Positions 647 through 57,750 of a stretch of DNA of 64,000 nt are shown here, one piece after another. This stretch comes from Mobula hypostoma. Its lineage: Eukaryota. A program made the position numbers and the translations under genes. Within the stretch, counting starts at the first letter, position 1, and every line of letters starts with the position of its first letter. The notes under the pieces were generated by a model that was not told where the DNA came from, did not search any database, and saw nothing but the letters and a program-made list of their open reading frames with translations. The stretch is taken from assembly GCF_963921235.1 (NCBI RefSeq), contig NC_086108.1, positions 35,838,001 through 35,902,000 of the forward strand. The letters are read 5' to 3'.

Positions 647-1812
647 GCAACACACATCAAAGTTGCTGGTGAACGCAGCAGGCCAGGCAGCATCTCTAGG
701 AAGAGGTACAGTCGACGTTTCGGGCCGAGACCCTTCGTCAGGACTAACTGAAGGAAGAATGAGTAAGAGATTTGAAAGTGGGAGGGGGAGGGGGAGATCC
801 AAAATGATAGGAGAAGACAGGAGGGAGAGGGATGGAGCCAAGAGCTGGACAGGTGATTGACAAAAGGGATATGAGAGGATCATGGGACAGGAGGCCCAGG
901 GAGAAGGAAAAGGGAGGGGGGGAAGGAAACTCAGAGAATGGGCAAGGGGTATAGTGAGAGGGACAGAGGGAGAAAAAGGAGAGAGAGAGAAAGAATGTGT
1001 GTATAAAAATAAATAACGGATGGGGTACGAGGGGGAGGTGGGGCATTAGCGGAAGTTTGAGAAGTCAATGTTCATGTCACCAGGTTGGAGGCTACCCAGA
1101 CAGATTTAAAGTGTTGTTCCTTCAACCTGAGTGTGGCTTCATCTTTATAGTAGAGGAGGCCGTGGATAGACATACCAGAATGGGAATGGGATGTGGAATT
1201 AAAATGTGTGGCCACTGGGAGATGCTGCTTTCTCTGGCGGACAGAGCGTAGGTGTTCAGCAAAACGATCTCCCAGTCTGCGTCGGGTCTTGCCAATATAT
1301 AGAAGGCCACATCGGGAGCACCGGACGCAGTATATCACCCCAGCCGACTCACAGGTAAAGTGTCGCCTCACCTGGAAGGATTGTTTGGGGCCCTGAATGG
1401 TGTTAAGGGAGGAAGTGTAAGGGCATGTGTAGCACTTGTTCCGCTTACAAGGATAAGTGCCAGGAGGGAGATCCGTGGGGAGGGATGGGGGGGAATGAAT
1501 GGACAAGGGAGTCGCGTAGGGACCGATCCCTGCGGAAAGCAGAGGGGCGGGAGGGAAAGATGTGCTTAGTGGTGGGATCCCGTTGGAGGTGGCGGAAGTT
1601 ACGGAGAATAATATGTTGGACCTGGAGGCTGATGGGGTGGTAGGTGAGGACCAGGGGAACCCTATTCCTAGTGGGGTGACGGGAGGATGGAGTGAGAGCA
1701 GATGTGCGTGAAATGGGGGAGATGCGTTTGAGAGCAGAGTTGATGGTGGAGGAAGGGAAGCCCCTTTCTTTAAAAAAGGAGGACATCTCCCTCGTCCTGG
1801 AATGAAAAGCCC
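647..1812 (-). mobile_element. Penelope-like retroelement, 5'-truncated: RT C-terminal region, GIY-YIG endonuclease and 3' pLTR
   Basis: ORFs 1445-1840 (-) (FFKERGFPSSTINSAL..RVPLVLTYHP) and 1072-1815 (-) (CKRNKCYTC...FTCESAGVIYCVRCSRCGLLYIGKTRRRLGDRFAEH), joined by a frameshift; the terminal repeat at 647-760 recurs across the window. Confidence 0.93.
709..750 (-). ncRNA. Minimal type I hammerhead ribozyme in PLE pLTR, intact core
   Basis: Reverse complement cagttagtc-ctgacga-a-gggtctcggccc-gaaa-cgtc-gactg: CUGANGA and GAAA boxes, stem II GGGU/GCCC, palindromic stem III ACGU, GUC cleavage triplet, stem I AGUC/GACU. Confidence 0.8.
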
Positions 1813-2486
1813 CATACCAGCTAATGTAGCATTGTGACAAAAACTATTAGGATGTGAAACAGCTTCTTACCCAGGCAATGAGACTACTGGACTCCAACCC
1901 AGGTCTCATCACTTATGAAGTGTCAATAGTGTTATACTGTTTACTTTTTAACCTGTGCTGTAAATGCACCTTATGCTAAATGCCAGTTTTCTAGAATCGA
2001 TTTTATTTGTGGTGGAATTACTCTGGGCTGTTTGTGAGTTATGTGTACTGTGGTTGTGTCCCTCAGTCTGGGGGAACATTGTTTCATTGGCAGGATACAT
2101 GCATACTGTTGAATGACAACAAACCTGGACTCGAACGTAAAAACGGAAGGGGATTACAATGTCACCAGCTACCCCAGCACGCGCCAGTGAGCATGAATCC
2201 ACAGTTTCCATTGCAAACATAAGATCAGTCTTCTGGAGAGGGAATCTGTGGAAAGTAACTGGACCAAGCAGTGTCCCTGGCTGTATCTCAGATCCAGCAC
2301 TGATCATCTGGCGTGAGTATTTGCAGATATTTTTAATTTTCCCTGGTACAATCTGAAGTTTCCACCTGCGTTAAGGAGACCACTATCATCCCAGTACCTT
2401 AGAAAAACATGAACATCATTCTTACCCTTAGCCATTAGGCTCTATGAGTCAACCAGTAGCTGGGGAAGTGATGATCCCCTCCTGTT

Positions 2487-2593
2487 TCCTTCAGTTAGTC
2501 CTGACGAAGGGTCTCAGCCTGAAACGTCGACTGTACCTCTTCCTAGAGATGCTGTCTGGCCTGCTGCATTCACCAGCAACTTTTATGTGTGTT
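2487..2593 (+). mobile_element. Solo PLE pLTR insertion (107 bp) with 13-bp TSD
   Basis: Matches the reverse complement of 650-755; flanked by identical atcccctcctgtt at 2474-2486 and 2594-2606. Confidence 0.88.
2492..2533 (+). ncRNA. Minimal type I hammerhead ribozyme, intact core
   Basis: cagttagtc-ctgacga-agggtctcagcct-gaaa-cgtc-gactg; stem II can pair as AGG/CCU. Confidence 0.72.
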
Positions 2594-3202
2594 ATCCCCT
2601 CCTGTTGGACTGTTTGTGGTAACTTATTTTTTATTCTTTCCACTTCTCTTCTAATATTTATATCTGTATACTTGTAATGCTATTGTGACACTGTAATTTC
2701 CTTTGGGATCAATAAAGTATCTACCTACCTTAATAACTGCTTCCTATTAGCTCTGGCATCCACCATCTTGAAGTGCTTTGAGAGACTGGTCATGAAATGC
2801 ATTAACTGACAACCTCGCCCCACTGCATTTGGCCATAATAAACAAATTTACCATTAAAAAAGCTCAAGAACTCCTTGATTTGATATTGACATTGGTTTAA
2901 TTATTGTCACATGCACCAAAATGCAACAAAAAAAGTGTTTGCATGTCATCCAGACAGAACAGTACAAGCATAAGCATATTAAGATAGTTAAATGGAAAGC
3001 AGAACATAGTGTTTCAGAGAAAGTGCAGTGCAGGAAGGCAAGCAAAGTACTGGGGAACAGAGACAGGCTATACAGTATAACACCAGTCAGCCTTTAGCTG
3101 AAATGTTGTGCTTAAATCTGAGTGGCAATTTGTAGCAAGAAAGAATGGCCTTTGAAGAAGTGTAGAGGAGATCTGTTCCAGTGATAGTGGAGTCTAAAAG
3201 AG

Positions 3203-4460
3203 GGACAACTCAATGGCTCAGCTGATAGAGCTGCTGTCCCCCAGCTCTGGCAACGAGTGTTCAATCATGACATCAGGTGCACTCCATGTGGAGTTTGCAC
3301 GATCCCTCTGTGATGGTGTGGGTTTCTCCCCATAGACTCCAGTTCCTTTTCACATCATAAATTTGAACAGGCTTGTGAGTTAACTGGTCACTGTAAATCA
3401 CATTGGCAAATCACCACCATTTTCAGGGTGCTTCCAGTCAAGACAGTACTGAGCCGCGATGTCTCTCGAGGTCATCACTTATACTTACTTGTTCTATAGG
3501 TTTGTAGGGATGGTTATTGGGGCACCACAGGGAGCTAGGGGACAGGTTAGGGATTAGGGACAGCAATCAGGGAGAGTTGGAGGATAGCGGAAGTGAACGA
3601 TGAGTCAGGCAGGGGTCAGATCCAGATTGGAATGTTTTGTAATTGAAGGCCAGTGATACACATGGATGCATGTTGAGTTGGCAGGTGCTGAAGATGAAGA
3701 TCAGTGATCCCTGTGGTCAATGTTCGAGGTCAGAGAACCTCATGGATGAGGGCTAGTCACCCTCTCCCCATGTTGGTGAGGCCTAAGATTGGAGGTACAT
3801 GTGGCAGGAGGCATGTAGGCCAGTGCCTCCTTGGTCAGCGAGTCCTGGGGTTGGAGGCCAAAAGTTCAAATTCCTGTGATTGTTTTGTCCTGGGCTGGAT
3901 ACCAAAGGTCAAAGCCCAGTGGTTGAAGACTGAAGTCAGCAAGTCCAGAAGTTGGAGGCCTGATGGTCAAAGCCCCTGATTCAGTGTGTCCAGAAGTTGG
4001 AGGGCCGATGTCTACGAGTGCTCAAGTCCAAGCCAAGGACTGGAGGTTGGAGGCCCGGAGGCAGCCTATCCTGGGGTTAAAGGCCTGTCTGTATGTGAGA
4101 GAATGGGTGGGTGGGAGAGAGGAAAGGAGCTTTTATTGCTGCTGTTGTGTTGTTGTTGCTTGTGTTGGTCTGCTGAACATTGTGGGCATTCTATGTTGGT
4201 GCCAGAAAGTGTGGCAACACTTGTGGGCTGCCCCCAGCACATCCTCTGGCTGCGTTGGTAGTTAGTGTCAATGATGCATTTCACTCTGTTTCAATGGACA
4301 TGCAATAAAAGAAATAAATCTGGATCAGAATCTCAAGCGGTGAAATAATAGTGGAGAATTGATGGGAGAATAAAATGAGTTGAGTATAGGATTGGTGTAA
4401 GTGGGTGCTCACTGGTCAGCATGGACAAAAGAGGCTGTTCCATTCCCCATGTCTGTGATG
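3203..4460 (+). mobile_element. tRNA-derived V-SINE (HE1-like), split by an insertion at about 3400-4332
   Basis: A box tggctcagctgatagag, B box gtgttcaatcat, V-domain-like tgtggagtttgcacg...gggtttctccc...ctccagttcc; 3' half resumes near 4335 (ggattggtgtaagtgggtgctcactggtcagcatggac). Confidence 0.6.
3400..4332 (+). mobile_element. Non-coding retroposon with Rex1-like 3' end
   Basis: Interrupts the V-SINE; ends in gcaataaaagaaataaatctggatcagaatc; internal short repeats of (tt)ggaggcc; no protein-like ORF. Confidence 0.4.
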
Positions 4461-5127: not shown

Positions 5128-5773
5128 ATATGATTATGATTGTGATTATGAGGACACGCAGTCCCCTTTTATTGTCATTTAGTAATGCATGCATTAAGAA
5201 ATGATAAAAATGTTTTTCCAGAATGATATCACGAAAACACATAACAAACTGACTTAAAAACTTGCAAAAACCACATAATTATAACAGTGCAAAGCAATAC
5301 CGTAATTTGATAAGAACAGACCATGGCACAGTAAAAGTCACAAAGTCTCTCGAAAGTCCCATCATCTCACGCAGACGGTAAACCTCCAGCGTCGCTAACT
5401 TGCCAATGCAGCATCCCGGAAGCATCCAACCACAGTCCGACTCTGAGTCCGTCTGAAAAACTCCAAGCCTCCGACCACCTATTTGACACCGAGCACCGAG
5501 CACCATCTCTGCCGAGCGTTTCGAGACCCTGGCCCCGGCAACAGGCGATACGCAAAGCTGAGGATTTGGGGCCTTCGTCTCCGGAGATTCTCGATCGCAC
5601 AGTAACAGCGGCAGCCAAGCAGGCATTTCAGAAGTTACTCCAGATGTTCCTCTGCATTTTCACGACTGTCCCCATCAAATCCGGACTGTGCACAGCACTC
5701 CTAGTTACACACATCGATATTCATTGGGAACGGCCGTGCGCGCTGCGTCGCACTGCCATCTTCTCCTCCCTCT
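5128..5773 (-). mobile_element. Non-autonomous retroposon family A, copy 1
   Basis: Collinear with 53498-54190 (+) and 57990-58648 (-); begins ggagaagatggca, ends gacaataaaag...gtcctcataatc with a short repeat tail. Confidence 0.8.
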
Positions 5774-5794: not shown

Positions 5795-6606
5795 TTCAAA
5801 GGTTGAAAGATCCAATTTAATGTCAGAGAAATGTATACAATATACATCCTGAATTGCTTTTTCTTTGCAAACATCCACGGCAACAGAGAAGTGCCCCAAA
5901 GAATGAATGACAGTTAAACATAAGAACCCCAAAGTCCCCTCTCCCAGCTCCCCTCCCTCCCACACGTAAGAGGCAGTTAGGAACAATTCCCCCCCCCCAC
6001 CGGCAAAACAGAAGCAAACATTGGCACTGCCACCAAGCACTCAAGCATGAGCAAAGCAATTGTAAAGACACAGATCTGCAAAGACTACCTGTTCCACCCA
6101 GCATTCGACATACCACAGGTTCTCTCTCTCCTTAGTAAGGGAGACGGAGATGTCTCCATTTTCCCAGCGAGTGGGGAGACATAATAAACAACTCAATGAT
6201 TTACAATGTTAGAAGTCTGTTACATCGCTTTTTTCGAACTCTGTGCCTGAAGATCGCAAAAATCCCGGGTCTCCAGGCACACAGCAGACATCCCGACTCC
6301 CCTGACGACACATGGGTCTCCTGCCGTGACACTGACCCTCGATCATCCCGTCTCCAGAGCCCCAGGATCTTAGGCTTCCAAAACCGAGCCAGACTCTCAG
6401 GCCGAACCCTTGGCCGAACAACAGCCAATCCTGAAACCCCGAGATCAGGTCCCGCAAAGAACCGAAGCCTGTGTGTAACTCCAAGTCAGGGTCTTCAAAA
6501 GAACCCTGAAAGGGAACAATAAAGATATTATAGATAGGAATAGAGCTGTTTCCGAAGATGCAAGCAATGGAATCGCCGTTTAGCGCATCTTTACTTCGCT
6601 CCACCT
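5795..6606 (-). mobile_element. Non-autonomous retroposon family B, CpG-rich 5' half and Rex1-like 3' end
   Basis: Minus strand begins ggtggagcgaagtaaagatgcgctaaacggcg and ends ctgacattaaattggatctttcaacctttgaac; same architecture as family A but different sequence. Confidence 0.55.
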
Positions 6607-7039
6607 CCCAGAAGTACTGGGATTTGTATAAATTTTGAGAGGTGAGATGAGGCAAATGAAGGATGTCAAATGAACTCTGCATGGAAATGTGGACCATGTT
6701 CTCATATGATGCAGCCATACAGTCCAGTCATCAGGTTTGGGATGATCAATACAATCCAGAATCAAATCACTCCGTGCACTTACCCTCTGCATTGTCTAAA
6801 TATTTTAATTTTAGCAATGATTTTGTGAATCAGATAGCAACCGTGATGACTCACAGAACGCCAGACAGGGGACACTCAGTCACACCTACCTGTTGCGTAA
6901 TTCCCTATCAGGTAATGGAAAAAAGGATAGGCTTGAGGATGACACAAGAATTGGAATCGGGGAATATGTTTAAAAGTTTTTTCTCAGTCTGCTGTGGTTA
7001 TCATATCCTGGGTGGAGATCGGTAGCCAGAGGTGTTCTA

Positions 7040-8085
7040 CAGAGACCTGTTCGGGAACCTCTGCTGTTTGTGATTTTTATTAATGACTTGCATGAGAAAG
7101 TAGAGGGGTGGGTTTTTAAGTTTTCAGATAACAGAAAGGTTGGTGATGCTGTGAATAGTGTAGCAGGTTGTCATAGGTCACAATGGGACTTGGGTAGGAT
7201 GCAGAGCTGGAAAGATGAGAGTCTCATCCAGAAAAATGTGAAGTGATACACTTCAGAAGGTCAAACTTGAAGGCAGAGTTAATGGCAGGATTTTCAGCAG
7301 TGTGGAGGAACAGAGGGAACTTGGGGTGCATATTCTTTGTAACCTCAACACTGCCATGCAAGTTGGCAGGATGATTAAGAAGGCATATGGTGTACTGACC
7401 TTCATTAGTCAGGGGACTGAGATCAAGAGCCGTGAGGTAACATTGCAGCTCTATAAATCTGGTTAAACCACATGGAGTATTGTGTCTAGTTCTGGTTGCC
7501 ACATTATACAAAGGATATGGAAGCTTTAGAGAGGATGCAGAGGATATTTACCAGGAATAGGGTCTCGGCCTGAAACGTCGACTGCGCCTCTTCCTATAGA
7601 TGCTGCCTGGCCTGCTGCGTTCACCAGCAACTTTGATGTGTGTTGCTTGAATTTCCAGCATCTGCAGAATTCCTGTTGTTTATATTTACCAGGATAATGC
7701 CTAGATGTCTTATGAAGTTAGGATGGGTGAGCTAAGGCTTTTCTCTTTAGAGGTATATAAGATGATAAGAGGTAGAGATAAAGGGGACAGCCAGAGACTT
7801 TTCCCTGGGGCAGAAATGGCTAATACAAGAAGGTGTAATTTTAAGATGATTGGAGAAAAAGTAAGGAGGGAGGTTGTCAAAGATAGTTTTTTTTTAAAGG
7901 TGGGAGCTTGGAATGCCCTGCCAGGGCTGGTGCTAGAGACATTAGGGATATTTAAGAAACTCTTCGATAGGCAGATGGATGATAGAAAAATGGAGGGCTC
8001 TGTAGGAGGGAAGGTTAGATTGATCTTGGAGTAGGTTAAAAGATCAACACAATTTGAGAGATGAAGGGCCTGTACTGTGTTGGAC
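7040..8085 (+). mobile_element. Decayed CR1 LINE, RT 3' half and 3' UTR
   Basis: tttattaatgacttgcat (FINDL), aagttttcagataacagaaaggttggt (KFADD.K.G, decayed), ORF 7705-8034 (SYEVRMGELRLFSLE...GAWNALP). Confidence 0.85.
7557..7681 (+). mobile_element. Solo PLE pLTR plus tail, truncated inside the hammerhead, 13-bp TSD
   Basis: gggtctcggcctgaaacgtcgactg...cagaattcctgttgttt flanked by atatttaccagga at 7544-7556 and 7682-7694. Confidence 0.88.
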
Positions 8086-8564
8086 TACCCATGTGCCAAA
8101 GCAGTCCAATAGAATCTGCGCCTGCTGTGCAGAGAAACAGCAAAAACATCAAAGGTTCATTGTGCAATGAGTCGAATTCAACATAAATCCATAGAATCAT
8201 ACTGCATGGATATGCAGCCTAACATGTGCAAATCAAACAAGATGCCATCTCTGCGAACTAATCCCATTTGCCCGATTTCGCTCATACCCCTTTACACCCG
8301 TCCTATCCATGTACCTGTCCAAACAACTTTTAAGCATTGCAATTTACTGTTCTCTACAACTTTCTGTGGAAGCTTATTTCATATACCCACCACTCTCAGT
8401 GTGAAAACCTTGCCCCTCGGATTTGCCAAACTTAGACCGAGTTAATTTTGTCCTGGTTGCATAAACGCATTCATAGACTGTATTTAGCCTGACATATGTT
8501 GCTAAATTGGGACTCGCTGATTAAATCAGCTTTAGCATTTTTTACCATAACATTTTTTACATAG

Positions 8565-8599
8565 GCCAGCAATTACAAGGGACGCTTTGTCATCGACAA
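8565..8599 (+). CDS. Candidate 35-nt internal micro-exon of an unidentified host gene (frame 0: ASNYKGRFVID+AA)
   Basis: T-rich acceptor cattttttaccataacattttttacatAG, donor AA|GTGAGT, no stop in any frame, two CpGs, in a repeat-free island. Confidence 0.45.
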
Positions 8600-9010
8600 G
8601 TGAGTCTCTCTTGTTTCCTGCTGCCTCTCCCTGCAAGAAATGGAAATTGAAACATTCATGTTTAAACAGAAACCTGAAATTAATTCATGAGATCAGCTTA
8701 GTTGAAAGTGTTTGATGACAAATAAATCTTCAGGATTCTACCGTTCAGAGTCATAGATTCTTAGAGCACTAAGCACAGAAATAAGCCCTTTGACCCATCT
8801 ATTTCGTGCCTAGTCCCATTGACCTGCACCTGGACCATAGCCCTTCATAATATCCTCCCATCCATGTACCTGTTCAAAGTTCTCTTAAATGTTGAAATTG
8901 AACCGGCTTCCACCATTCCTGTTAGTAGTTTGTTCCACACCTCATCACCCTATAAGTGAAAAGATTGCCCCTATCTTCACCTTAAATATTTCACCTTTCA
9001 CCCTTAACCC

Positions 9011-12000
9011 ATAAGACCCTAAAACATGGGAGCAGGATTAGGCCATTTGGCCCATCGAGTCTGCTGCACCATTCAACCATGATGGCTGATCCTTTCTTCC
9101 CCTCCTTAGACCCACTCCTGCCTTCTCCCTGTAACCTTTGATGCCATGTCCAATCAAGAGATTGTCAAGCTTTTCCTTAAATACACCCAACAACCTGGCC
9201 TCCACAGCTGCTTGTGGCAACAAATTCTCCAAATTCAACACCGCTTGGCTAAAGAAATTTCTCCGCATCTCTATTTTAAATGGATGCCCCACTAACCTGA
9301 GGCTGTGCCCTTTTGTCCTAGACTCCCCCACTATGGGAAAGGTGCTTCATGTTTTCCACATCTACTCTGTCTAGGCCTTTCAACATTCAAAAGGTTTCAA
9401 TAAGATCCCCCCCTCATCTTTCTAAATTCCAGTGAGTACAGACCCAGAACCATCAAACATTCCTCGTATGATAACTCTCTCATTCCTGGAATCATCCTTG
9501 TGAAACTCCTCTGGACCCTCTCCAATGCCAGCACATCTTTTCTTAGATGAGGAGCCCAAAGTGCTTACAATATGCATGGTGAAGCTGACTAGTGCCTTAT
9601 AAAGCCTGATCATCACATCCCTGCTCTTGTATTCTGGACCTCTTGAAATGAATGCTAACATTGCATTTGCCTTTCTCACCACCAACTCAACCTGTATATT
9701 AACCTTTAGGTTGTTCTCCCAAGTCCCATTGCATCTCAGATTTTGCATTTTCTCCCCACTTAGAAAAGAGTCTACACACTTATTTCTACTACCAAAGTGC
9801 ATGACATGCATTTTCCAACATTGTATTTCATTTGCCACTTTCTTGCCCAATCTCCTAATCTAAGTCCTTCTGCAGTCTACCTGTTTCCTCAATACTACCT
9901 GTCCCTCCACCCATCTTTGAACCATTTACAAACTTGGCAACAAAGCCATCTATTCCATCATCTAAATCATTAATGTGCAGCATAAAAAGAAGTGGTCCCA
10001 ACACCAACCCTTGTGGAACATCACTAGTCACTGGCCGCCAACCAGAAAAAAGATCCTTTTATTCCTACTTGCTGCCTCCTACCAATCAACCGACACTCTG
10101 ACCATGCTAGAGGAACTCAGCAGGCCGAGCAGCAAAGGTCTCGGCCTAAAACGTTTACTGTTCATTTCCACAGATGCTGTCCGACCTGCTGAGTTCCTCC
10201 AGCGTGTTGTGCGTGTTGCTTTGACCCCAGCATCTGCAGAGAATTTTGTGTTTACTCTAGCCATGCTAGTAACTCTCCTGTAATACCATGGGCTTTTAAC
10301 TTGGTAAGCAGTCTCATGTGTGGCACTTTGTCGAGAGCACACAAATCCAAACAGACAACATCCCCTGCATTCCCTTTATCTATCATACTTGTAATCTCCT
10401 CAAAGAATTCCAACAGGTTTGTCGTGCAAGCTTTTCCCTTAAGGAAACCATACTGATTTTGTCCTACCTTCTCCTGTGTCATCAAGTACTCTATAACCTC
10501 AACCTTAACAATTGGTTCCAACATCTTCCCAACTACTGAGGTCAGGCTAATTGGTCTAGAATTTCCTTTCTGCTGCCTTCCTCCTTTCTTAAAGACTGGA
10601 GTGACATTTGCAATTTTCCAGTCTTCTGGCACCATGCCAGAGTCCACTGATTTTTGAAGGTTCATTGCTCATGCCTCCACAATCTCCCGCTACCTCTTTC
10701 AGAACCCTAGGGTGCAGTTCATCTGGTCCGGGTGACTTATGTACCCTTACATCTTTCAGCTTTTGAGCACCTTCTCCCTTGTAATAGTAACTGCTCTCAC
10801 TTCTCTTCCCTTACACCCTTCAACGTCTGGCACACTGCTAGTCTTCCATAGTGAAGACTGGTGCAAAATACTCATCTCTCTTTTATTTTTTACATACTTG
10901 AAAAGTTTTTACTATTCACTTTGATATTGTTTGCCAGCTGGCTTTCATATTTTATCTTTTCCATCCTAATGATTATTTCAGTTACTTTCTGTAGGTTTTA
11001 AAGGCTTTCCTCCCACTGTTTTTTGCTTTGTTGTATGCACTCTCTTTTGCTTTTACATTTGCCTTGACTTCCTTTGTCTGCCACAGTTGTACAATTTTGC
11101 CATTTCAGTATTTCTTTGTTTTTGGAATACATCTATCCTGCACCTTCCTCATTTTTGTCAGAAACCCAAGCCGTTGCTGCTCTGCTGTCATCCCTGCCAG
11201 AATCTCCTTCCCATTTACTTTGGCCAACTCCTCTCTCATACCACTGTAATTTCCTTTACTCCACTGAAATACTGCTACATCAGACTTTGCTTTCTCCCTA
11301 TCAAATTTCAAGTTGAATTCTATCATATTGTGATCACTGGCCTCCTAAGGGTCCTTTTACCTTAAGCTCCCTAATCACCTCTAGTTCATTACGTACCATC
11401 CAATCCAGTATAGCTAATCCCCTAGTAGGCTCAACGATAAACCACTCTAAAAGGTCATCTCATAGGTATTCACCAAACTCACTCTCTTCAGATCCATTAC
11501 CAACTTGATTTTCCCAATTTCCCGCATGTTGAAATTTCCCATGAATTACATAACATTGTCCTCCTGACACGCCTTTTCTATTTCCCATTGTAATCTGTGG
11601 TCCACATCCCAGCTACTGTTTGGAGGCCTGTATATAACTGCCATCAGGGTCCTTTTACCCTTGCAGTTTCTTAACTCAGCCCACAAGGATTCAATATCTT
11701 CCAATCTTATGTCACATCTTTCTACTGATTTGATGCCATTCTTTACCAGTAGAACCACACCACCCCCTCTGCCTACCTTCCTATTCCTCCAATAAAATGT
11801 GTAACCTTGGACATTCAGCTCCCAACTACAACCATCCTTCAGCCAGGATTCAGTGATGGCCACAACATCATACCTGGTAATCTGTAATCATGCAGCAAGA
11901 TCATCCACCTTATTTCTTATACTCCATGCACTGAGATATAACACTTTGAGTACTGTATTTGCTACCCTTGTTGATTCTGCATCCCTAGCGCATTGGTACT

Positions 12001-12708
12001 CACCCTGCTGGCTGCAATTTTTGTCCTATCATCTGCCTGCCCTTCCTGACAGTCTGAATGCATGCTATATTGGATTTTTTTTTACCATTCATCCTATCCT
12101 GAGTCCCTTCACTCCAGTTCCCTGATCTTCTTGCCAAATTAGTTTTAACCCTCTCCACCAGCTCTAACAAGCCTGCCTGCGAGAATATTGGTTCCCCTCA
12201 GGTTCAAGTGCAAACCGTTACTTTTCAACAGGTCATTCCTCCCCCGGAACAGATCCCAGTGATCCAAGAACCTGAAGCCCTGTCCCCTGCACCAGCTTCT
12301 CAGCCATGCATTTACCTGCTAAATCATCCTGTTTCTACCCTCACTGGCGTGTGACACAGGCAGCAACCCAGAAGTTACTACCCTGGGAGGTCCTGCTTCT
12401 CAGCTTTCTGCCTAGCTCTATAAAATCTCTTTTCAGGACCTCTTTGCTTTTTGTTCCTATGTCATTGGTGCCAATATGTACCAAGACATCTGGCTGCTCT
12501 CCCTCCCTCTCCAAGGTGCTGTGGACGCGATCCAAGACACTCCTGACCCTGGCACCTGGGGAGCAACATACCATTCAAGTGTCCCATTCACATCCACAGA
12601 ATCTCCTATCTGTTCCCTTGACGAATGAGTCCCCTATCACTACTGCTCCCCTCTTGTCCGCCTTTCTCTCTGCACCACGGACCCATGCTCAGTGCCAGTA
12701 ACCAGGTC
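9011..12708 (-). mobile_element. Long defective CR1 LINE: ORF1 SGNH esterase C-terminus, AP endonuclease, RT, 3' UTR
   Basis: ORFs 12341-12574 (CSPGARVRSV..DVLVHIGTNDIG), 11546-11863 (MAITESWL..GRGGGV..VIYRPPNS), 10252-10665 (PEDWKIANVTPVFKKG..RPISLTSVVGKMLE), 9422-9850, 9038-9331. Confidence 0.95.
10111..10253 (+). mobile_element. Short partly palindromic PLE pLTR insertion with degenerate hammerhead
   Basis: aggaactcagcaggccgagcagc is inverted against gctgtccgacctgctgagttcct; flanks actctgaccatgctag (10095-10110) and actctagccatgctag (10254-10269). Confidence 0.8.
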
Positions 12709-13151
12709 CCCATGACCTCTAGTTCTAGTCTCACCCAACTATGTGGAAAAAAACTTGCTTTCATTTACTCTATCTATACCCTCATAACTTTGTATATCTC
12801 TATCAAATCTCCCCTCATACTCCTATAGTCTAGGGAATGATGTCCAAGCCTATTCAACCTTCCCCTATAATTCAGGTCCTCAAGTCCTGGCAACATCCTT
12901 GTAAATTTTCTCTGCACCCTTTCAATTTTATTTAAAGCTTTCCTGTAGGTATGTGTTCAGAACTGCATTGAATACTCCAATTAGTAATATTTCATAGTTC
13001 ATGTAAATGATTTGGATGTGAACGTACATGGTGTTATTAGCAAGTTTGCTGATGATATTAAATGAGGGGTTCTTATTGATTGTGAAGCAAATTACAATGA
13101 ATTGCAAGGAGATCTTGATCAGTTAGAGTTGGGCTGAGGATTTCGCTATTT

Positions 13152-13568
13152 CTCTTTCAATATTTTTATTAGTTTCTGCATAGAAGAATACAGAGTACAA
13201 GAAGGTACATATTATAAGTCAAAAAAAAATAAAATAGCATCAAATACATTGTATTAAAAATACAATTACAATCACAAAACCCTGTAGTCATAAAAATTAA
13301 ATTAAATCGTAATATTGAAATATAATAATTTTGTTATACAGAAAAAAAATCCAAACCCCCTGCCAAAGTCAGAGCTGTTAGGAAAAGCACGAAAAAAGGG
13401 GGAAAAACCCTTATCATATAATAAAATATATTACTAACCACCATCTGTACTTTTACAACAAATCAAAGGTTTTGAAAATAACTCAAAAATGGTCCCCACA
13501 ATGTATAAAAGTCTTGGCTGGATTCAAAAACTGAACAACGGATCTTCTCTAAATTTAAGCATGACATA
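13152..13568 (-). mobile_element. Fish-type L1 LINE 3' end with 15-bp TSD
   Basis: Minus frame MSCLNLEKIRCSVFESSQDFYTLWGPFLSYFQNL* (stop at 13463-13465) matches the L1 ORF2 C-terminal LEKIR...F...W.PF motif; T-rich 3' UTR with aataaa; TSD aggatttcRctattt at 13137-13151 and 13569-13583. Confidence 0.8.
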
Positions 13569-13673
13569 AGGATTTCACTATTTAACAGAAATTTGGATAG
13601 GCACGTTAATGGGAGGAGTGTGGAGCGCTATGATCCAGGTGCAGGTCGACGGGAGGAGCAGTAGAGTAGTATT

Positions 13674-14036
13674 GCTACTAGGACTTGATGTTTCAATCCC
13701 TATGGTAAGTCGGCACTCTCGATGTTGGCAGTGGGTTTGGAGTGGTGACAAGGAGGGAGGGTAGGTACATCATTGGGGTCATCAGGTGGGCACCCTCCAT
13801 CTTTGACATTTCGTTGATAAGCCCACAACGTCTCCAGAGGGCTCAACGGTGCTACCTGGCATCCCAGATACACCCCCCCCCCGCCTCAGTTCCATACCCT
13901 CCTGTCTTCATCTTGCAGCCCAGTTGCTGTCTTTCCTTTTAATCCAAATCCAATTGCTGCTTTCTTCTGCTGCGTTTGACAAGGACTTGATTGCTTGTTG
14001 GAGGGAGTGACCCCTCACCCCCATCTTCTTCAGCAG
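13674..14036 (-). mobile_element. HERO-like (R2 group, restriction-like endonuclease) non-LTR retrotransposon 3' fragment
   Basis: Minus frame 14036-13908 reads LLKKMGVRGHSLQQAIKSLSNAAEESSNWIWIKRKDSNWAAR*, the AAE..S.W.W.KR C-terminus of HERO ORFs. Confidence 0.72.
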
Positions 14037-14149
14037 AATAATATTGTGGCAAAGACTAGATGGGTCCAAAGAGCTGTTTCTGTGCTATGGTGTTCCATGA
14101 CTCCATGATATGTTCCAACACAGAGACCCCATTAGTGACAGGTTACCAC

Positions 14150-15570: not shown

Positions 15571-15664
15571 GTCCTGACGAAGGGTCTCGGCCCGAAACCT
15601 CAACTGTACCTCCTCCTATAGATGCTGCCTGGCCTGTTGCGTCCACCAGCATTTTGTGTGTGTT
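15571..15664 (+). mobile_element. Solo PLE pLTR insertion starting at the hammerhead, stem III mutated
   Basis: gtcctgacgaagggtctcggcccgaaacctcaactg...tgtgtgtt flanked by gctgatgcgcct (15559-15570) and gctgatgtgctt (15665-15676). Confidence 0.85.
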
Positions 15665-15925
15665 GCTGATGTGCTTCTGTTGGCTTTATAGTGCCTATCT
15701 CACCGTACACGGCAGTATATTTCATCTCTTTAGTAATGGGGATGTGTAAATGTGAATATATTGCTTGTATACTGCTTGTAAGGCAGATATTCCTGTTTGT
15801 TTTGTAATATGATTGTAACTACATTGTGAGGTGCTTCATGTTCTAATTCATATAATCTTAAGGTAACTGTGGGTAATTAAAGATGGTTTGTCTTGGTGTC
15901 TATTAAATTGGGTTGATCACTCTCA

Positions 15926-20919: not shown

Positions 20920-21124
20920 CACAGACATGAGGGAATCTGGAGATACTGGAAATCCTGGCAACACATACAAAATGCTGAAGGATCTCAGCAGGCCAGGCAG
21001 CATCTATGGAAAAAAAAATACAGTCGACGCTGCTGAAGGGTTTCGGCCCGAAACATCGGCTGTACTTATTTTCCATAGATGCTGCCTGGCCTGCTGAGTT
21101 CCTCCAGTATTTTGTGTGTGTTGC
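20920..21124. mobile_element. Palindromic PLE mini-element of two inverted pLTR arms
   Basis: gcaacacatacaaaatgctg...gcagcatctatggaaaa is inverted against ttttccatagatgctgc...tgtgtgtgttgc; centre holds a degenerate hammerhead ctgctgaagggtttcggcccgaaacatc; cagtgag occurs on both flanks. Confidence 0.85.
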
Positions 21125-21882: not shown

Positions 21883-22290
21883 CATTCATTGACTCTTTAA
21901 CTCTATTATCTCAGTTTAGCAGGTCTTTCCTTTTCCAATCCATTAGCTGCTTAATTATTTTCTTAACTTATTATCAAGTCCACAATTTTCACCCTTTCAG
22001 AATTGAACTGCATATCATAATCATTCTCTTCACCTTCCCTCTCTTTCTTTTGCCAGTTATAGTATATCCACATCCATTGTTACTTAACCAACAGAAACAG
22101 CTATTGTCCACTTATTCTGCTAATGCAATAGAAGGAACTGTTACCTTGTTATAATTACCTATGAAATTTAAGAATTATTGATTTAATTTTTGGTTGGCTG
22201 GGCCTTCAGTGATAATTTGTTCACCCAGTAGCATTTATCAACTGAATGCCAGTCAGGGTGCAGTGCAAGAAACAGTATCGGTAGTTCCTA

Positions 22291-22494
22291 GCAACACACA
22301 CAAACAGCTGCAGGAACTCAAGCAGGCCAGGCAGCATCTCTGGAAAAGAGTACAGTCGACATTTCGAGCCAAGACCCTTCTGAAAGGGTGACTGTACTCT
22401 TTTCCATAGATGCTGCCTGGCCTGCTGAATTCCTCCAGCAGTTTGTGTGTGTTGCTGGGATTTCCATCATCTGCTGATCTTCTCTTGTTTAGTG
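22291..22494. mobile_element. Palindromic PLE mini-element with 11-bp TSD
   Basis: Arms gcaacacacacaaac...gaaaagagtacagtc and gactgtactcttttcc...gtttgtgtgtgttgc; TSD ggtagttccta at 22280-22290 and 22495-22505. Confidence 0.88.
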
Positions 22495-22934
22495 GGTAGT
22501 TCCTAATATCATTTGTTAATAACCTTCATTATTCCAATGTACAAGTGTAATCTTAATACCACTTTAAAAAATCTAATAGTTACATCTGTGACTGTGATGG
22601 CAAAAGAATCCACCTGCCTGTACTTTGAAAAAACTCCCATTGACTCAATACTTTTAAGAAATCCTGCTTAACATCAATTTCTCTTTGATTATTTATGTGA
22701 TCAAAAACAGGCAGTAGCATTTCATCAGTACACCATCAATTAAAAGAAAAGTGGTATGCATTTCCATAATGGAAAATACTCAAAATACTTAACCAACACA
22801 CTCCCAAAGTTAACTTAACTATACCTCACCCACCCTCCTTTTTGTACAGTCCCCATTCTGTTTTCCAATTTTATTCAGTTTGTCCAGCTTTATCACACCT
22901 GTCCTAATGATAGTACTTTTCATAACTAACCAGA

Positions 22935-23960: not shown

Positions 23961-24099
23961 AATTGAATTCGCTTTTCATTAAATGGAGTTTCTGGTTAAC
24001 CATAAGCAACAGAACTTATAACTGTGTCTTTTCCATTTTCTCACTTTTTGCACTCATCCCCTGTCCTCCACCCACATCCTTCACATTTTTCTGATCATC

Positions 24100-27324: not shown

Positions 27325-27460
27325 ATCACGCTGCAGATGTTGGAAACCGGAGGAAAGAAAATACTATTTGTTGGAGGAAACCAGCAGGTCAAGAAGCATC
27401 TGTAGTGAGAGAGAAATTGTTGACGTTTCTGATCTAGACCCCTCATTGGATAAGAAACGA
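27325..27460 (-). mobile_element. Old PLE pLTR with degenerate hammerhead
   Basis: ctgcagatgttggaaac...ggaggaaaccagcaggtcaagaagcatctgtag...gttgacgtttctgatctagacccctcatt. Confidence 0.6.
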
Positions 27461-36257: not shown

Positions 36258-36950
36258 AAACACAAGATGCGGGAAATCTGAAGGGCCACCCACAAAGTGC
36301 TGGAGGAACCCAGCAGGTCAGGCAGCATCTGTGGAGAAGAGTAAACTTGCCCACTCATTCCTCCCCATTGATCTCTCTGATGGCACTTACCCCTGCAAGC
36401 AGGACAGGTGCTAGACCTGCCCCTACACCTCTTCCCTCAACACCACTCAGGGCCCCAAATAATCCTTCCAGGTGAGCCGACACTTCGCCTGCGAGTCTGT
36501 CAGGTCATCTACTGTATCTGGTGCTCCCAGTGTGGCCTCCTGTATATTGATGACCCCCGATGTAAAGTGTGGTACCGTTTCATCAAACACCTTCACTCTC
36601 TCCAACACAAAAGGTGGGATTTCACAGCGGAAACCCATTTTAATCCAACTTCCCGTTGTCATTCCAACATGTCAGTCCGTTGCCTCCTCCCCTGCCGTGA
36701 TGAGGCCACACTCGTGTTGGAGGAGCAACACTTCATTTTCTGTTTGGGTAGCCTCCAATCTGATGGCATGAACGTCAGTTTCTCTCCCCTTCCTTCCCTT
36801 TCTCCCATTGCCACTGTCCTCTCCTCTCTAAATAATTCTTCTTCAACCCTTTACCTCTTCTGCCTACCAACTCCCAGCTTCTTCCATGATCCCCCTAACA
36901 CACTCACTCACCTTCCCCATCACCTGGCTTCACCTATCAGATGCCACCTG
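36258..36950 (+). mobile_element. Penelope-like fragment: GIY-YIG region preceded by an inverted pLTR piece
   Basis: ORF 36408-37004 contains VIYCIWCSQCGLLYI..HFNPTS..EEQHFIFCLGSLQSDGMN; 36258-36345 is a minus-strand pLTR arm with tail. Confidence 0.85.
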
Positions 36951-42689: not shown

Positions 42690-43625
42690 ACATAAATGTT
42701 AATCAAATACAATGTGGTTTTGTAAAAGGGGAAATAACGTTTGCCCACTTGATTATAGTTCTTTGAAGAGGTAATATATCCTGCGGATAAAGCCAAACAG
42801 GAAAATGCATTGTGCTTAGAATACCAGAAGGCACATGATAACGTGCTGCACATTGATATGGATTGAACTTTAGCCTGGTTATGGGATGCAGAAGCAGTTT
42901 TAAAAGGGTCCTATTATCCCAAAGAGAAGTGAGTCATGGGGATTAATGCCGAACCTTTTTAGAATTTACATAAATAACTTAGATGAAAGCATAAAAGCTA
43001 CAGTTGCTGAGTTGGCTGATGACACAAAGGGAGGTACGAAGTAAGTTGTGCAGATGACATAAAAGAATACAAATGGATAGACTGACATTAAATGGATACA
43101 GATGTGGGAAATGGAATATGATATGGAAAAATGTCAATCATCCATTTAGCAAGAAAACTAAAAATAGCATATTATCTAAATGATGAGAGGCTGCAAAGCG
43201 GTATCAAAAGTGCTTGAAGAACTCAGCAAGTCAGGCTATGCACTTTGGAGTGATATGGACAGTTGATGTTTCAGTTTGAGACCCTTTTATCTGGGCTGAA
43301 GATGAAGGGGGAGATAGCCAAAATAAAGGGAGGAGACTGCAGAGCTCTAAGATGCAGATGGATCTGGATATCCTCGTGCATGAATCACAAAAGACAGGTA
43401 TTCAGGTACAAGTAATTAGACAAGCTAACAGAATGCTCTTGTTTATTACTAAAGGAATAGAAAACAAACGTAAGGTGATTATGCTTCAGTGACCCCACAT
43501 ATTCGTGAAACTGTATCATGTACAGTATTGGCTTAGTTACTTAAGGAATGATATTCATACATTGGATACAGTTCAGAGAAGTTTATGAGACTAATACCTG
43601 GAAATGGAAGGATGTCTTATGAGGA
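42690..43625 (+). mobile_element. Decayed CR1 RT fragment containing an old PLE pLTR piece (about 43200-43330, minus strand)
   Basis: ttagaataccagaaggcacatgataac (LD.QKA.D), ttggctgatgacacaaag (ADDTK), actcagcaagtcaggc...gttgatgtttcagtttgagaccctt. Confidence 0.7.
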
Positions 43626-46251: not shown

Positions 46252-47253
46252 TCCGATATATTGATAAATAAGTCAAATAGAAGTTGAATCAGAATTATAG
46301 AGCATGGAAGCAGGCCTTTCAGCCCAACTTGTCTGTCCTGACCTTCCTGAACTAGTGCCATTTGACTGCATTTACCTTTCCTAGCCATGAAACGGTCCAA
46401 ATGTTTTTCAAACACTTTACTTGTACCTACCTCTAGTCACCACCCTCTGTGTTACAATCCTGTCTCTCAAGTCCCCTTTTAAACTTTCCACTCTCACCAT
46501 AATCCTATACTTTTTAGATTTAGACTCCACTAGGCTGGACCATCCACCTTACTTATGCTCCTTGTGATTTTATAAACCTCTGTAAGATCACCACTCAACC
46601 TCCGAGCTCCAGGGAAAACAATCCAGACTCTTCATTTAACTCAAGCCTTCCAGTTCCAGGCAAAATCCTTGTGAGTCTTTTCTGCATTGTCTTTTGTTTA
46701 ATCACATCCTTCCTACAGAATGGCAATCAGAACTGCACACAATATTCCAAGTGTGATTTCACAAATGTCTTGTACAGCTGTAATAATGATATCCCAACTC
46801 TTCTACTCAGTGCCCCATCCAATGAAAGCAAGTGTGCCAAATCCCTTCTTCACCACTTTATCATTTTGTGTCAATACCTTCAGAAAACTAGGTCTCTCTA
46901 TTCTATAACACTCTCCAGAGTCTTGTCATTATCCCTTCCCTGGGTTAAGTTCCAAAAAAACGCATCTCCTCGCACTTGTCTGAGTTAAATTACATCTGCT
47001 GTTCCTTGGTCCACTTTCCCAATTGACATTAGACTCTGTTGTAGCCTTAGACAATTTCTTCACTGCCTACCGCACCACCAATTTTGGCATCATATGCAAA
47101 CTTACTAATCATACTGTTTACATTTTCATCCAGATCATTAATATTAATGACAAACAGGGGACCCAGAACTCAACCCTGTGGTACACCATTCCAATCTAAA
47201 AATAATCCTCCTCTCTCACACTCTCACTCTTACCACCAAGCCAATTTTGTATC

Positions 47254-47852
47254 GAAACAACAGGAATTCTGCAGATGCTGGAAATTCAAGCAACACACAT
47301 CAAAGTTGCTGGTGAACGCAGCAGGCCAAGCAGCATCTATAGGAAGAGGCGCAGTCGACGTTTCAGGCCGAGACCCTTCGTCAGGACTAACTGAAGGAAG
47401 AGTGAGTAAGGGATTTGAAAGCTGGAGGGAGAGGGGGAGATGCAAAATGATAGGAGAAGACAGGAGGGGGAGGGATAGAGCCGAGAGCTGGACAGGTGAT
47501 AGGCAAAAGGGGATACGAGAGGATCATGGGACAGGAGGTCCGGGAAGAAAGACGGGGGGGGGGTGACCCAGAGGATGGGCAAGAGGTATATTCAGAGGGA
47601 CAGAGGGAGAAAAAGGAGAGTGAGAGAAAGAATGTGTGCATAAAAATGAGTAACAGATGGGGTACGAGGGGGAGGTGGGGCCTAGCGGAAGTTAGAGAAG
47701 TCAATGTTCATGCCATCAGGTTGGAGGCTACCCAGACGGAATATAAGGTGTTGTTCCTCCAACCTGAGTGTGGCTTGAACGTCGACTGCGCCTCTTCCTA
47801 TAGATGCTGCTTGGCCTGCTGCGTTCACCAGCAACTTTGATGTGTGTTGCTT
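47254..47852 (-). mobile_element. Short Penelope insertion: tailed pLTR, 3' UTR and endonuclease tip, then an inverted pLTR arm; 12-bp TSD
   Basis: 47290-47777 is collinear with 647-1139; 47779-47852 is the reverse complement of 47288-47362; TSD caattttgtatc at 47242-47253 and 47853-47864. Confidence 0.93.
47352..47393 (-). ncRNA. Minimal type I hammerhead ribozyme, intact core
   Basis: Reverse complement cagttagtc-ctgacga-agggtctcggcct-gaaa-cgtc-gactg. Confidence 0.75.
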
Positions 47853-49247
47853 CAATTTTGTATCCAGTTGGCTCGCTCACCCTGGATCTCATGTGATCTT
47901 ATCTTCCTGACTATTATACTATGCAGGACCTTGTCAAAGGCCATGGAACAATACCTACCATCCTTCCCTCATTATTCCTGCAGGTCACTTTTTCAAAAAG
48001 TTAACTTGAATTTGAGAGGCACAATTTTCCGTCTTTCCAAAAGCATTTAGACCTTGTTTCTCGGAATCCCTTCCAGTAACTTTCCATCACTGATGTAATG
48101 TTCACCAATCTGTAGTTTCTTTAATTGACTGCAGTTCTTAAATAAAGGCACAACACTGACCATTCTTCAGTCTTCCTGTATCTCTCTCATGGCTAAGAAA
48201 GATACCCATGACAAGTTTACTACTGCAATAATGAGAGTGAAACTACTAATTGCTTGATCATTCCTTTTGTTATTCTAAAACAACAGTGCCATAAACAACA
48301 ATTAGGTCAGACTTCAAGTAAACATGGAAAACTGAATGAGGAACCACCTTTGTAGAAATGGATTATTGTCACCCTCAGTTCCTCCACTTCTTTCTTAAGA
48401 ACATTGACTCAGATCAGGTCAACTGCCATGGAGTTTTCCTGTGCTCCAATATCTCATTTTAGATTGTAGAGCTGTGCTCCCTACTTTACTATAGTCAGTG
48501 CAGTCCATCCTGGCTTCATTGTTAATCCTGAACCAAGAAATCCTTGGCTAATTGTGGCAGTCTTTCCACCAATTATTTTTCTTGCCAAGTGGTCCCTTCA
48601 GATGAAAGATAATCTTTTCCCATTTATGAGCTCAGTGAAGTCCATCGATGCTCATATGGGAACTGCACACTCTTCCACAGATTGGGGAGCAAGTGCCTGT
48701 GAGGAGGGGTTAGGTCGCTTGTGAACTAATGTGTTTCTCCTTTCATTCACATGGGGAATCTGTGCACTCCATGACACAAGGTTCTCAGTTCCACCCTGAA
48801 TATTCCTGCTCCTACCTCAGGAAGTCACAAGCCAGAGATTCCACGGAGTCGGTAGGGAAATTGTACTCTTGCTCAGTACCAGTCAGCATTATGATTTGCT
48901 TGGTTGCATACCCTTTGGTTAGAAATATCACAAACCGCCATCACAAAGCAAATATACTCTAGAGGTGCATTTCTCAACAGCTGAGATTGAGGGAAGTCCT
49001 CCATGTTCCTGATAGCAATCCCACAGTCGATGTGTTTAAAACCTACCAAATTCAGGATAGGCAAGTTAAAGCAAGAATCCAGAAACACCCCGACCAGAGT
49101 TCCTGAGTGAAGTTTCAAACTAAGTAATAGAAACTCAATTTGGGAGATTGAATTTCAATGTTACAGTATAAACTGTGACCTGATTGGTGGCTTAGTAGTG
49201 GATCCCAATATGACCAATTGGCCTGACATTTAATCTAGTGTGATACA

Positions 49248-53394: not shown

Positions 53395-54710
53395 TAGAAA
53401 TATTAAGAATAAAACAGAAAATGCTGGATCAGGCCACATTGGGAAGCTCAGGTTGAACACAGGTGTTCTGTAAAGTCATCTCTCCAATGTGTGTTTGAGA
53501 GAGGGAGGGAGGAGAAGATGGCGACGCGACGCATCTCACAGCGGCCACTCCGGTGTTGATGTCTGTTATTTGTCAAGTAGGGTGCTGTACACAATCCTGA
53601 TTTGATGGAGAGGGACGTGAGAGCACGGAGGAACATCTGGTGAAACTTCTGAAATGCCTGCTTCGCTGCTGCTGCTACTGTGTGGTCCAGAATCTCCGGT
53701 GGGGAAGGCCCCGAGTCCTCGGCTTTGCTTGTTGCTCGGCGGCTGGGGAAGGGTCAAAGCGCTCAGCAGAGGATGGTGCTCGAAGAGGCTGTGTCAGAGG
53801 GGCTGATCGGAGGCTCGCAGTTTTCGGACGGACCCAGAGTCCTCTGCGGCCGGGTGCTTCCAATGGTGCTGCATCAGCAAGTTGGCGGCGCTTGGAGGCT
53901 CATGGCGGGGAGAGTTCCTTCCCGTCTGCCACCTGCGTGAGATGATGAGTCTATCAGGACTTTGAGACTTTTTTTTTACCGTGCCCATGGTCTGCTCTTT
54001 ATCAAATTATGGTATTGCTTTGCACTGTTGTAACTATATGTTATAATTATGTGGTTTTGTAAGTTTTAGTTTTGGTTTGTCCTGTGTTTTCTTGTGATAT
54101 TATTCTGGAGGAACGTTGTATCATTTTTTAATACATGCATTTCTAAATGACAATAAACGAGGACTGAGTGTCCTCATAATCTAATCTAATTCTCCAATGT
54201 AGAGGAGACCAAACTGTGAACCAGCTGCGTTTATCCTTGGAAGTTGGGAAGGAAAGAGGTGAAAAGATAGGTGTAACATTGTCAGTGGGAGCGAGGAGAA
54301 GTGCCATGAAGGGCTTTGTTGGTGACCCAAAGAATGGATCAGGGAGTCATGAATGGAATAGTTCCTGCAAAATGTTGAAAGGGGAAGAGAGGGGAAGATG
54401 GAAACACTACCCCTGTCCTGTCCTGGAGGACAGAGAGTGAGAAGAGAGGCACAGGAAATGGATGAGGTGTAATCAAGAGCATTATTAACAATGGTAGGAG
54501 GAAGATGCTTGGTTCAGAAAGAATGAGGTCAGTTCAGAAACTCCTGATCTCGTCAGTGGACCAAATACAATAAAGATGGAGGAACTAGAAGGTTGGAATA
54601 GAATCCTTGCAGGAGACAGGGTGGGATGAACCGTGGCCAAGATAGCTGTGACAGTCACTAGAGTTGTAATGTATTGAATGTTAATGTCTACCTCCTGAGA
54701 TAGAGACACC
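53395..54710 (-). mobile_element. Old Penelope-like fragment split by family A copy 2
   Basis: aggtgttctgtaaagtcatctc resumes as tctccaatgtagaggagacc (reverse GLLYIGE); collinear with 1250-1810. Confidence 0.55.
53498..54190 (+). mobile_element. Non-autonomous retroposon family A, copy 2
   Basis: ggagaagatggcgacgcg 5' end, CpG-rich body, gacaataaacgaggactgagtgtcctcat(aatct)n 3' end. Confidence 0.82.
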
Positions 54711-56069
54711 AAGTGAAGAAAACCTTTGATGAAGGCTAAGAATCACAGTGAGCTAGCACATGGTGCAGTCTAGGAAAATCATGCAATAATACAATGGAGG
54801 CCACTATGCCTGCACTTTGAAAGAGCTCTTCATCAGTAGTGAACATTGTAGATCAGCAACAGTTTGCCAGATGAAGCAATTATGCTTCCACAATTTACCA
54901 TTGTAACGATGGAACTGGCATTTTGATGCAAATTTCAATACAGTGAATTGTGAATCAAGTGCCACCTTTTGTCTGGGACAGGTGAACGGAGCTGCTGGGG
55001 CTTATTGAACAATCCATGGTCTCTCAGTACTTATCTCTGAAAAGAATTAATTAATTAACTGCATTCTGATTGCACTGAAGTCAAACTGAAGTTGAGACTT
55101 ATCCGCAGAATGAATTTAGGAAGGATATCATCCACCACATAGAACAGTTCTAACCTCAGGGCTGATGTAAATTACCAAAACTTTGAGAATGTACTCTGCT
55201 TCTTCAGGAACAAAAAAAATAAGGATCCTTTCACATCACAAATGACTGTCACATTCCATTGCAACATTTTGTGACAGTTCCCAGAAGAGTACTGTTTCAC
55301 ATCCTCTAATTTGAGGTTCAGTCTCTCAAATTTCCAGCACATTTTGGGTTTGATCTGCCTGAAGGTCACTGTGGCTTCAAAACAGACAATAAACTAAAAC
55401 CAGGCTTACAGTCCGTGATTGCTGAATCACAGATGCAACAGTTGGACTTACAAACTGAAGAATTCCAAAAGCAAAATTGCTTTAACTGTCTGAAAACCAG
55501 GTCTCTCAGAAATCAGTTAACATATTAAGCCAAATTAACTGTCTGGCATTTGACTTTAGTCTGCCTTACTCACAGCAATATCATTTGGTCTTGCCTTCTA
55601 AGTCCTATTCCCCTCCATTTTTTAATGTTTATAGCCACAACAGAATAACTGAGCAATCTGGACATAGTTTTCTCATGGTCATAAAGTAAAACAAGATTGG
55701 CACAGTGGGATATAGGACCTCCTTCTAACTCTTTATATCTTCGTGATTAAAAGTTGACTCATATTTCCTTCTGTATGGCAGTAGCCAAAAGTCCATCCAC
55801 CATACACTTTGTAAAGTATCTATACAGTAGTTCCACACTCTTGTTCTTTTCGAGTAACCCTTCAAAGTTTTCAGTGGACTAATAATTATGCAAGAGAATC
55901 TTAAAAATGGCTTGAATCTGTGTCTGATATCTTCTGGGCAGTATGTTTCAGAACACTTTTGCAAATGAACATATCCTCCCAGCGAATGATTTTAAGAGCC
56001 TTTACAGTAAAATCAAGGTAGACATTGGAAGTGTCCAATAGAGTTGCCACTTTATTTTCCAGTATTATA

Positions 56070-57442: not shown

Positions 57443-57531
57443 CTAGCATTTAGAAGACTGGGATATAATCTTCCTGGAATATGAGATTCTGAGGGGCTTG
57501 ACAAAGTAGATAATATATTTCCCCTGCTACT

Positions 57532-57750
57532 AAACATAAGAGATTCTGCAGATGCTGAAAATCCAGAACAATCCACACAAAATGCTGGAGGAACTCAGCA
57601 GGTCAGGCAGCATCATTAGAAATGAATAAACTGTCAATGTTTTGGGCTGAGACCCTTCACCAGGACTGGAAAAGAAGGGGGAAGAAGCCAGAATAAGGTG
57701 GTGGGGGAAGGGGAAGGTAGAAAGTGATTGGTGAAGCCAGGTGGTTTGGG
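57532..57750 (-). mobile_element. PLE pLTR plus tail with degenerate hammerhead
   Basis: gattctgcagatgctgaaaatcc...gctggaggaactcagcaggtcaggcagcatc...ctgtcaatgttttgggctgagacccttcaccaggactg. Confidence 0.8.

Follow-up and report, generated by a model that had tools for sequence, protein, structure and literature searches.

Minimal type I hammerhead motifs at the 3' ends of a GIY-YIG Penelope-like family in the genome of the ray Mobula hypostoma

The window analysed here is a 64,000-nucleotide stretch of the Mobula hypostoma genome (assembly GCF_963921235.1, contig NC_086108.1, positions 35,838,001 to 35,902,000, forward strand), and all coordinates are those of the window. A strict descriptor finds three complete 36-nt minimal type I hammerhead cores in it, at 710-745 (-), 2497-2532 (+) and 47353-47388 (-), with a match in 0 of 500 dinucleotide shuffles of the same sequence; a relaxed descriptor returns the same three cores and adds none. 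These are the sites that a first-pass annotation had called intact, its interval 709-750 taking in some flank around the exact core at 710-745 (-). Its assignment of stems and core also reads correctly on the minus strand at this site, with a helix I of AGUC/GACU (5 bp with a U.G pair), CUGACGA, an extra A9.1, a helix II of GGGU/GCCC closed by a 4-nt loop, GAAA, a palindromic helix III (A15.1-C-G-U16.1) and C17, so that the predicted cut follows GUC. The features are as follows.

647..1810 (-): Penelope-like copy A, 5'-truncated, with the end of the RT thumb/linker and a frameshifted GIY-YIG, RT core missing (tblastn to P0001, 77-93%); its 3' part holds a pyrimidine-rich 3' region, the hammerhead and a short, tail-less 3' end (from sequence)
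710..745 (-): complete core with G10.1-C11.1 (descriptor); predicted cut 714/713
746..765 (-): pyrimidine run and CAG/UAG directly 5' of helix I, putative splice-acceptor-like site (from sequence)
2474..2606 (+): 107-nt insertion (2487-2593) between 13-bp target-site duplications (TSDs), with a complete core at 2497-2532 and G10.1.U11.1; predicted cut 2528/2529
7544..7694 (+): short insertion with a 13-bp TSD and a tail, starting at A9.1, CUGA box missing
10095..10269 (no single strand): head-to-head pair of a small inverted piece and a tailed copy starting near A9; core mutated; 16-bp TSD with 2 mismatches
15571..15666 (+): short copy that begins at helix I position 2, with helices III and I disrupted by G16.2>C and G1.1>A, respectively
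20925..21124 (no single strand): head-to-head pair; the tailed minus copy starts 4 nt before the cut, the plus copy at C3; core mutated
22280..22505 (no single strand): head-to-head pair with an 11-bp TSD and a palindromic junction; plus-copy homology from or just before G1.1 (the cut)
27327..27448 (-): old tailed copy with a heavily decayed core
36258..36950 (no single strand): inverted tailed 3' piece without a core (36258-36348, -), joined to an old (+) GIY-YIG fragment that has lost its own 3' end
43192..43330 (-): old copy in which 15 of the 36 core positions have decayed
47242..47864 (no single strand): 12-bp TSD unit of a tailed 5'-truncated minus copy (47255-47776) and an inverted tail-less partner (47778-47850) that begins 6 nt ahead of the cut
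47353..47388 (-): complete core with G10.1.U11.1 (descriptor); predicted cut 47357/47356
54331..54743 (-): old PLE RT/thumb fragments, no hammerhead seen (tblastn, 48-57%)
57530..57744 (-): older-subfamily tailed copy; core full-length, with A6, G12, G16.2 and C17 mutated

All three complete cores carry A9.1 unpaired between A9 and position 10.1 and a palindromic CG at 15.2-16.2 without a loop III; the 10.1-11.1 pair is G-C in the 710 copy only and G.U in the other two. The copies that hold them agree at 99-102 of 107 nt, and we therefore regard the three cores as copies of one repeat rather than independent events. Fifteen copies can be aligned, of which three, on both strands, keep a complete core. 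The eight further sites earlier listed as truncated or mutated all exist, and nhmmer and blastn add partial copies at 47778, 21029 (-), 22382 (+) and 36341 (-), with weak remnants found by nhmmer near 30969, 50567 and 50709. At 22370-22400, a short palindromic junction is followed by plus-copy homology that runs from about G1.1, where the 5'-OH end is predicted; this is one copy in 15 and may be chance. The Rfam search that had been proposed as a check, run on the window with cmscan, gives ten matches down to E 5 and no hammerhead family, and its miRNA and plastid matches are the head-to-head hairpins at 22330 and 10111. CUGACGA occurs eight times in the window; of five of these occurrences, that at 15574 belongs to a family copy and those at 6302, 29804, 37386 and 54550 are not hammerheads.

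The cores match the published consensus for minimal hammerheads (min-HHRs) of metazoan Penelope-like elements (PLEs; Cervera and de la Pena 2014, PMC4209133), that is CUGANGAH with its extra base, G10.1, GAAAN, a short helix I, a palindromic CG for helix III, and UH, with the cut after GUC. That survey describes thousands of motifs in fish, coelacanth and Xenopus, mostly single and dispersed on truncated PLEs with some opposite-strand pairs, as in our window. The 4-bp helix II with its tetraloop lies at the short end of the published range. We considered G10.1.U11.1 as a new variant and ruled this out, since the same pair is present in the Latimeria 1, cichlid and Xenopus 1 rows of that alignment. 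No cartilaginous fish is found among the chordate alignment rows examined (PMC4209133).

By their sequence, the hammerhead sites are evidently the 3' ends of one GIY-YIG Penelope-like family, fragments of which make up about 7% of the window. A C-X4-C-X2-C motif precedes GIY-YIG in the open reading frame (ORF) at 1072-1866, and the GIY-YIG of copy A itself scores just below the Pfam cut-off (E 2e-4, 22.1 bits against 22.6). A search of longer proteins gives 15 matches among 247 candidates, the best at 91% to a M. hypostoma protein and others at 73-86% to five Hypanus sabinus proteins; a more distant homologue, P0010, has RVT_1 and GIY-YIG in one ORF, while the window copies are truncated, with an RT-side fragment at 54549-54743. 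In copy A and in one further copy (H) the hammerhead lies ~300 nt downstream of the end of the GIY-YIG ORF. The window holds only truncated copies, with no full-length element and no tandem copies with two direct pLTRs. The family is most likely Neptune-type, judged from one linker motif (CX4CxxC) and not from an RT tree. Together, the GIY-YIG domain and linker, the protein matches and the fit to the published consensus (PMC4209133) bear out the initial identification of a PLE terminal-repeat hammerhead of the minimal, dimer type.

Sequence of this PLE endonuclease also occurs in NCBI gene models of rays and sharks that are named as host genes (P0003, P0004, P0008 and P0011; mucin-2, divergent protein kinase domain 1C, receptor-transporting protein 3-like and chitinase domain-containing 1), reflecting either exonisation or an annotation artefact. 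A 24-nt pLTR pattern has no match in metagenome and viral contigs. Across 29 metagenome loci with related RTs (85 kb) we find one relaxed min-HHR, at L013:1615 (-), on the strand opposite to the PLE RT ORF, an uninformative result; this motif, on a metagenome contig, has a 7-bp helix II and an AU palindrome.

The copies have the anatomy of PLE insertions, for which a tail, an inverted partner and a TSD are the described signature (PMC8557442, PMC3846280). Direct flanking repeats of 11-16 bp, scoring 10-13 against a maximum of 9 in 2000 random draws, bound five of the ten units tested; for the other five, among them copy A, flanking repeats do not rise above chance. Five head-to-head pairs are present (10111/10134, 21029/21030, 22380/22382, 36341/36350 and 47776/47778), and every one of the 15 copies is solitary or head-to-head, with no head-to-tail unit. 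Copies finish at either of two 3' ends ~35 nt apart; three of the pairs (21029, 22380 and 47776) carry the ~35-nt extension on one arm only. Contigs of public runs have loose ends at both positions, among the rows listed 126, 75 and 451 in X1, X2 and X19 at the long 3' end (47255), and 26 and 21 at 47289 and 47291 for the short one. PAc, a Poseidon PLE of Anolis carolinensis (Frangieh et al. 2024, PMC11167929), likewise has its hammerhead upstream of two 3' ends and a 30-40 nt tail, which that study explains by two internal RT start sites. The window element differs from PAc in its Neptune-type CX4CxxC linker and in that its young copies lack an AUG at the start of helix II, where the PAc ORF begins. 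With Neptune PLEs (PMC8557442) it shares a C-terminal GIY-YIG, a CX2-5CxxC linker, the tail, an inverted 5'-truncated partner and a hammerhead near the 3' end; unlike them it shows no microsatellite target bias at the five TSD-flanked sites of the window.

Of the 15 copies, 13 hold sequence on both sides of the scissile bond, with 22382 starting at about the cut and 36341 downstream of it; the templates of the 13 were therefore uncut or religated, and the cut did not set their 5' ends. Contigs of the public runs show no accumulation of molecule ends, though contigs are not a kind of data in which such ends would be visible. PAc copies are likewise made from uncut RNA, and the insertion records in the window agree in this respect with that one in vitro study (PMC11167929).

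We then consider the core across subfamilies, using contigs of four public runs (X1, X2, X19 and X20) aligned to 47240-47480 at 80% likeness (5,939-24,402 pieces per run). Among the best 24 of 882 rows, loose contig ends fall at the core edge 47352 in all four runs (115, 60, 468 and 349 in X1, X2, X19 and X20) and at the opposite edge 47388 in three (87, 456 and 310 in X1, X19 and X20), from which it follows that the 36-nt core is common to other subfamilies, whose sequences diverge on either side of it. Of 37 variant places listed (40 of 48 rows), 11 lie in the core and 26 in 205 nt of flanks, a modest per-site contrast; depth sums are not copy numbers. Nine of the 11 core variants listed fall on CpG positions, N7 and 11.1 among them, and the remaining two are in the loop and at 1.4; no subfamily-level change is seen among these rows at C3, U4, G5, A6, A9, A13, A14, A15.1 or U16.1. 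U11.1 accounts for about 80, 71, 39 and 24% of depth in X1, X2, X19 and X20, well above the 2-18% of CpG decay elsewhere, and is thus a subfamily trait. At 47353 in X20, 68% of depth carries U1.4>A, which shortens helix I unless its partner has changed too. Conservation of the core as a block between variable flanks suggests selection in master elements. On conservation or covariation, which the first-pass annotation had named as a check, the results point two ways: the core is shared across subfamilies relative to its flanks, while covariation among the 15 window copies does not exceed that of shuffles, which reach the observed values in 60-175 of 500 cases.

Predicted folds offer little prospect of cleavage by the dispersed copies. 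The isolated 44-nt monomer favours an inactive rod (-13.5 kcal/mol), in which G5-G8 pair with the cleavage strand, over the open hammerhead (-8.7 kcal/mol), and within 30 nt of natural flanks neither helix I nor helix II is populated beyond 7%. Counting against cleavage as a dimer, the best cofold (-35.3 kcal/mol) is predicted to be much more stable than a designed double hammerhead (-16.3 kcal/mol). The nearest intact cores on the same strand are 46.6 kb apart, leaving no same-strand tandem pair to form a dimer. Published assays describe similar behaviour: single min-HHRs lack monomer activity in vitro and dimers have low activity (PMC4209133, with PMC6765202 in agreement on this and on the dispersed single motifs), eight of nine Xenopus dimers did not cleave (10.64898/2026.07.22.740005), and the PAc hammerhead cleaved only with protein, RNA-seq ends at the cut not being found (PMC11167929). 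The dispersed copies are solitary and decaying, most likely inert passengers, and any action of the ribozyme would take place in a tandem master transcript, through dimer formation or assisted by protein. The first-pass picture of a locus seeded with self-cleaving RNAs is not supported by these results, given 12 of 15 copies without an intact core, no tandem pair, helices so sparsely populated in context, and insertion 5' ends that the cut did not set.

Outside self-repeats the window has 264 ORFs of at least 55 aa, of which 258 were scanned and six low-complexity ones left out. No host coding exon is detected among the 258, in a scan that would miss short exons or a long intron. Eight ORFs match Pfam, one of them weakly and below the cut-off, and the other seven have domains that we take, from their names, to be typical of transposons. 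RT, APE endonuclease and GDSL esterase matches at 8748-12600, 32901-34206, 38369-41388 and 59275-62816 mark many LINE fragments, presumably CR1/L2-like; an RT-RNase H domain of an LTR-retrotransposon-like element lies at the window edge (63336-63998, -; Pfam E 7e-17); two copies of another ~630-nt repeat occur at 5144-5772 and 57992-58650; and 3200-3400 appears by eye to be tRNA-derived SINE-like sequence resembling, we assume, elasmobranch SINEs. A pyrimidine run ending in CAG adjoins helix I in young and old subfamilies alike (746-765, 47389-47405 and 57666-57685, all on the minus strand). As a splice acceptor the signal is weak, because the whole upstream region is rich in pyrimidines (82% over the 300 nt upstream of the 710 core); its resemblance to the intron end at helix I of D. 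virilis Penelope, whose pLTR intron has been described (PMC2377424), is a lead only.

We judge it very probable that what recurs here is a minimal type I hammerhead belonging to the pLTR of a single abundant GIY-YIG Penelope-like family of the ray genome, most likely Neptune-type, copied from uncut template and inert where dispersed. Weighing against this reading are covariation no better than in shuffles, the unfavourable fold of the double hammerhead and the one copy (22382) that starts at about the cut. The idea, put forward at the outset, that intact copies cut host or read-through transcripts at the locus and so affect gene expression, draws on the three complete cores kept on both strands, and it accords poorly with the lack of a host exon among the scanned ORFs, of a same-strand tandem pair and of populated helices in context, as well as with the inactivity of single min-HHRs in vitro (PMC4209133) and of most Xenopus dimers (10.64898/2026.07.22.740005); we give it hardly any credence and find no sign of host function. 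Slightly less improbable, and still doubtful in the extreme, is that the short units, instead of being random 5' truncations, form a non-autonomous family resembling retrozymes, whose mobilisation starts from RNA cut by the hammerhead and possibly circular. Animal retrozymes do derive from pLTRs, and the vertebrate non-LTR retrozymes, with a type I hammerhead, are reported in the one chondrichthyan genome of that study (10.64898/2026.07.22.740005); religated RNA would span the cut too, and 10 of the 15 copies have a 5' end inside the core or within 10 nt of it, one of them at about the cut. Yet these ends are scattered from position -9 to 33 rather than fixed, four copies extend into the 3' region of the PLE and two of these reach its ORF, and non-LTR retrozymes are defined as tandem repeats, each unit with a complete hammerhead, which our solitary or head-to-head copies are not.

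An alternative of a different kind, to which we assign a low but appreciable probability, is that master elements retain the core chiefly as a signal of structure or for protein binding, or through overlap with an intron acceptor, cleavage being incidental. PAc catalytic mutants inserted normally in vitro (PMC11167929), Naiads proliferate without hammerheads (PMC8557442), and the acceptor-like site adjoins helix I, the place where the intron of D. virilis ends (PMC4209133). Against this, the positions free of subfamily-level change among the rows listed are ones that catalysis needs, and the PAc hammerhead does cleave when protein is added (PMC11167929).

Under the preferred reading of a pLTR hammerhead copied from uncut RNA, the element protein would bind its own RNA and initiate reverse transcription from either of two sites that lie ~70 and ~105 nt 3' of the cut (by extension from PMC11167929 and PMC4209133), and copying of uncut RNA would carry the hammerhead along in almost every short insertion. 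Cleavage by the hammerhead in a tandem master element would be slow, relying either on a dimer joined through the ACGU palindrome or on assistance by protein, and would be a side or late processing step.

The position of the copy ends raises one further point. In strand-switch joints of the public runs, all nine of the joints listed have one arm at 47371-47401; joints that link the cut region with the tail by a skip of 66-71 nt were left out, the letters between being unknown and the depths 5-25. It is conceivable, though on balance unlikely, that PLE cDNA synthesis is prone to halting or reversing at the hammerhead. Lying ~70-105 nt from the start sites, a core that is folded or bound by protein might then block the RT or set off synthesis of the inverted second copy, which we hold only tentatively; a splice acceptor at helix I might likewise provide a further switch. 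Such stalling would explain both the 10 of 15 copies that end in or beside the core and the nine joints. One window cannot separate this clustering from ordinary short truncation combined with detection bias, and it stands as an open lead.

The feature is real, correctly identified and of a known kind, and only its ray lineage seems undescribed. The early assessment that the class is known holds, as the class is already published (PMC4209133), and its suggestion that density and activity in this lineage may be undescribed is consistent with our finding no description of this ray family in literature searches on Penelope hammerheads in cartilaginous fish and sharks, with the proviso that the supplements of 10.64898/2026.07.22.740005 may name it. 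These results add a batoid family to that class, and their practical value is a large natural dataset on the open question of what PLE hammerheads are for. At 36 nt with a 4-bp helix II, the core is a very compact candidate for assays of dimer or protein-assisted cleavage. If the hammerhead does stall cDNA synthesis, the very high copy number in rays would make it possible to map, from genomes alone, how PLEs synthesise their second strand and what role the ribozyme plays.
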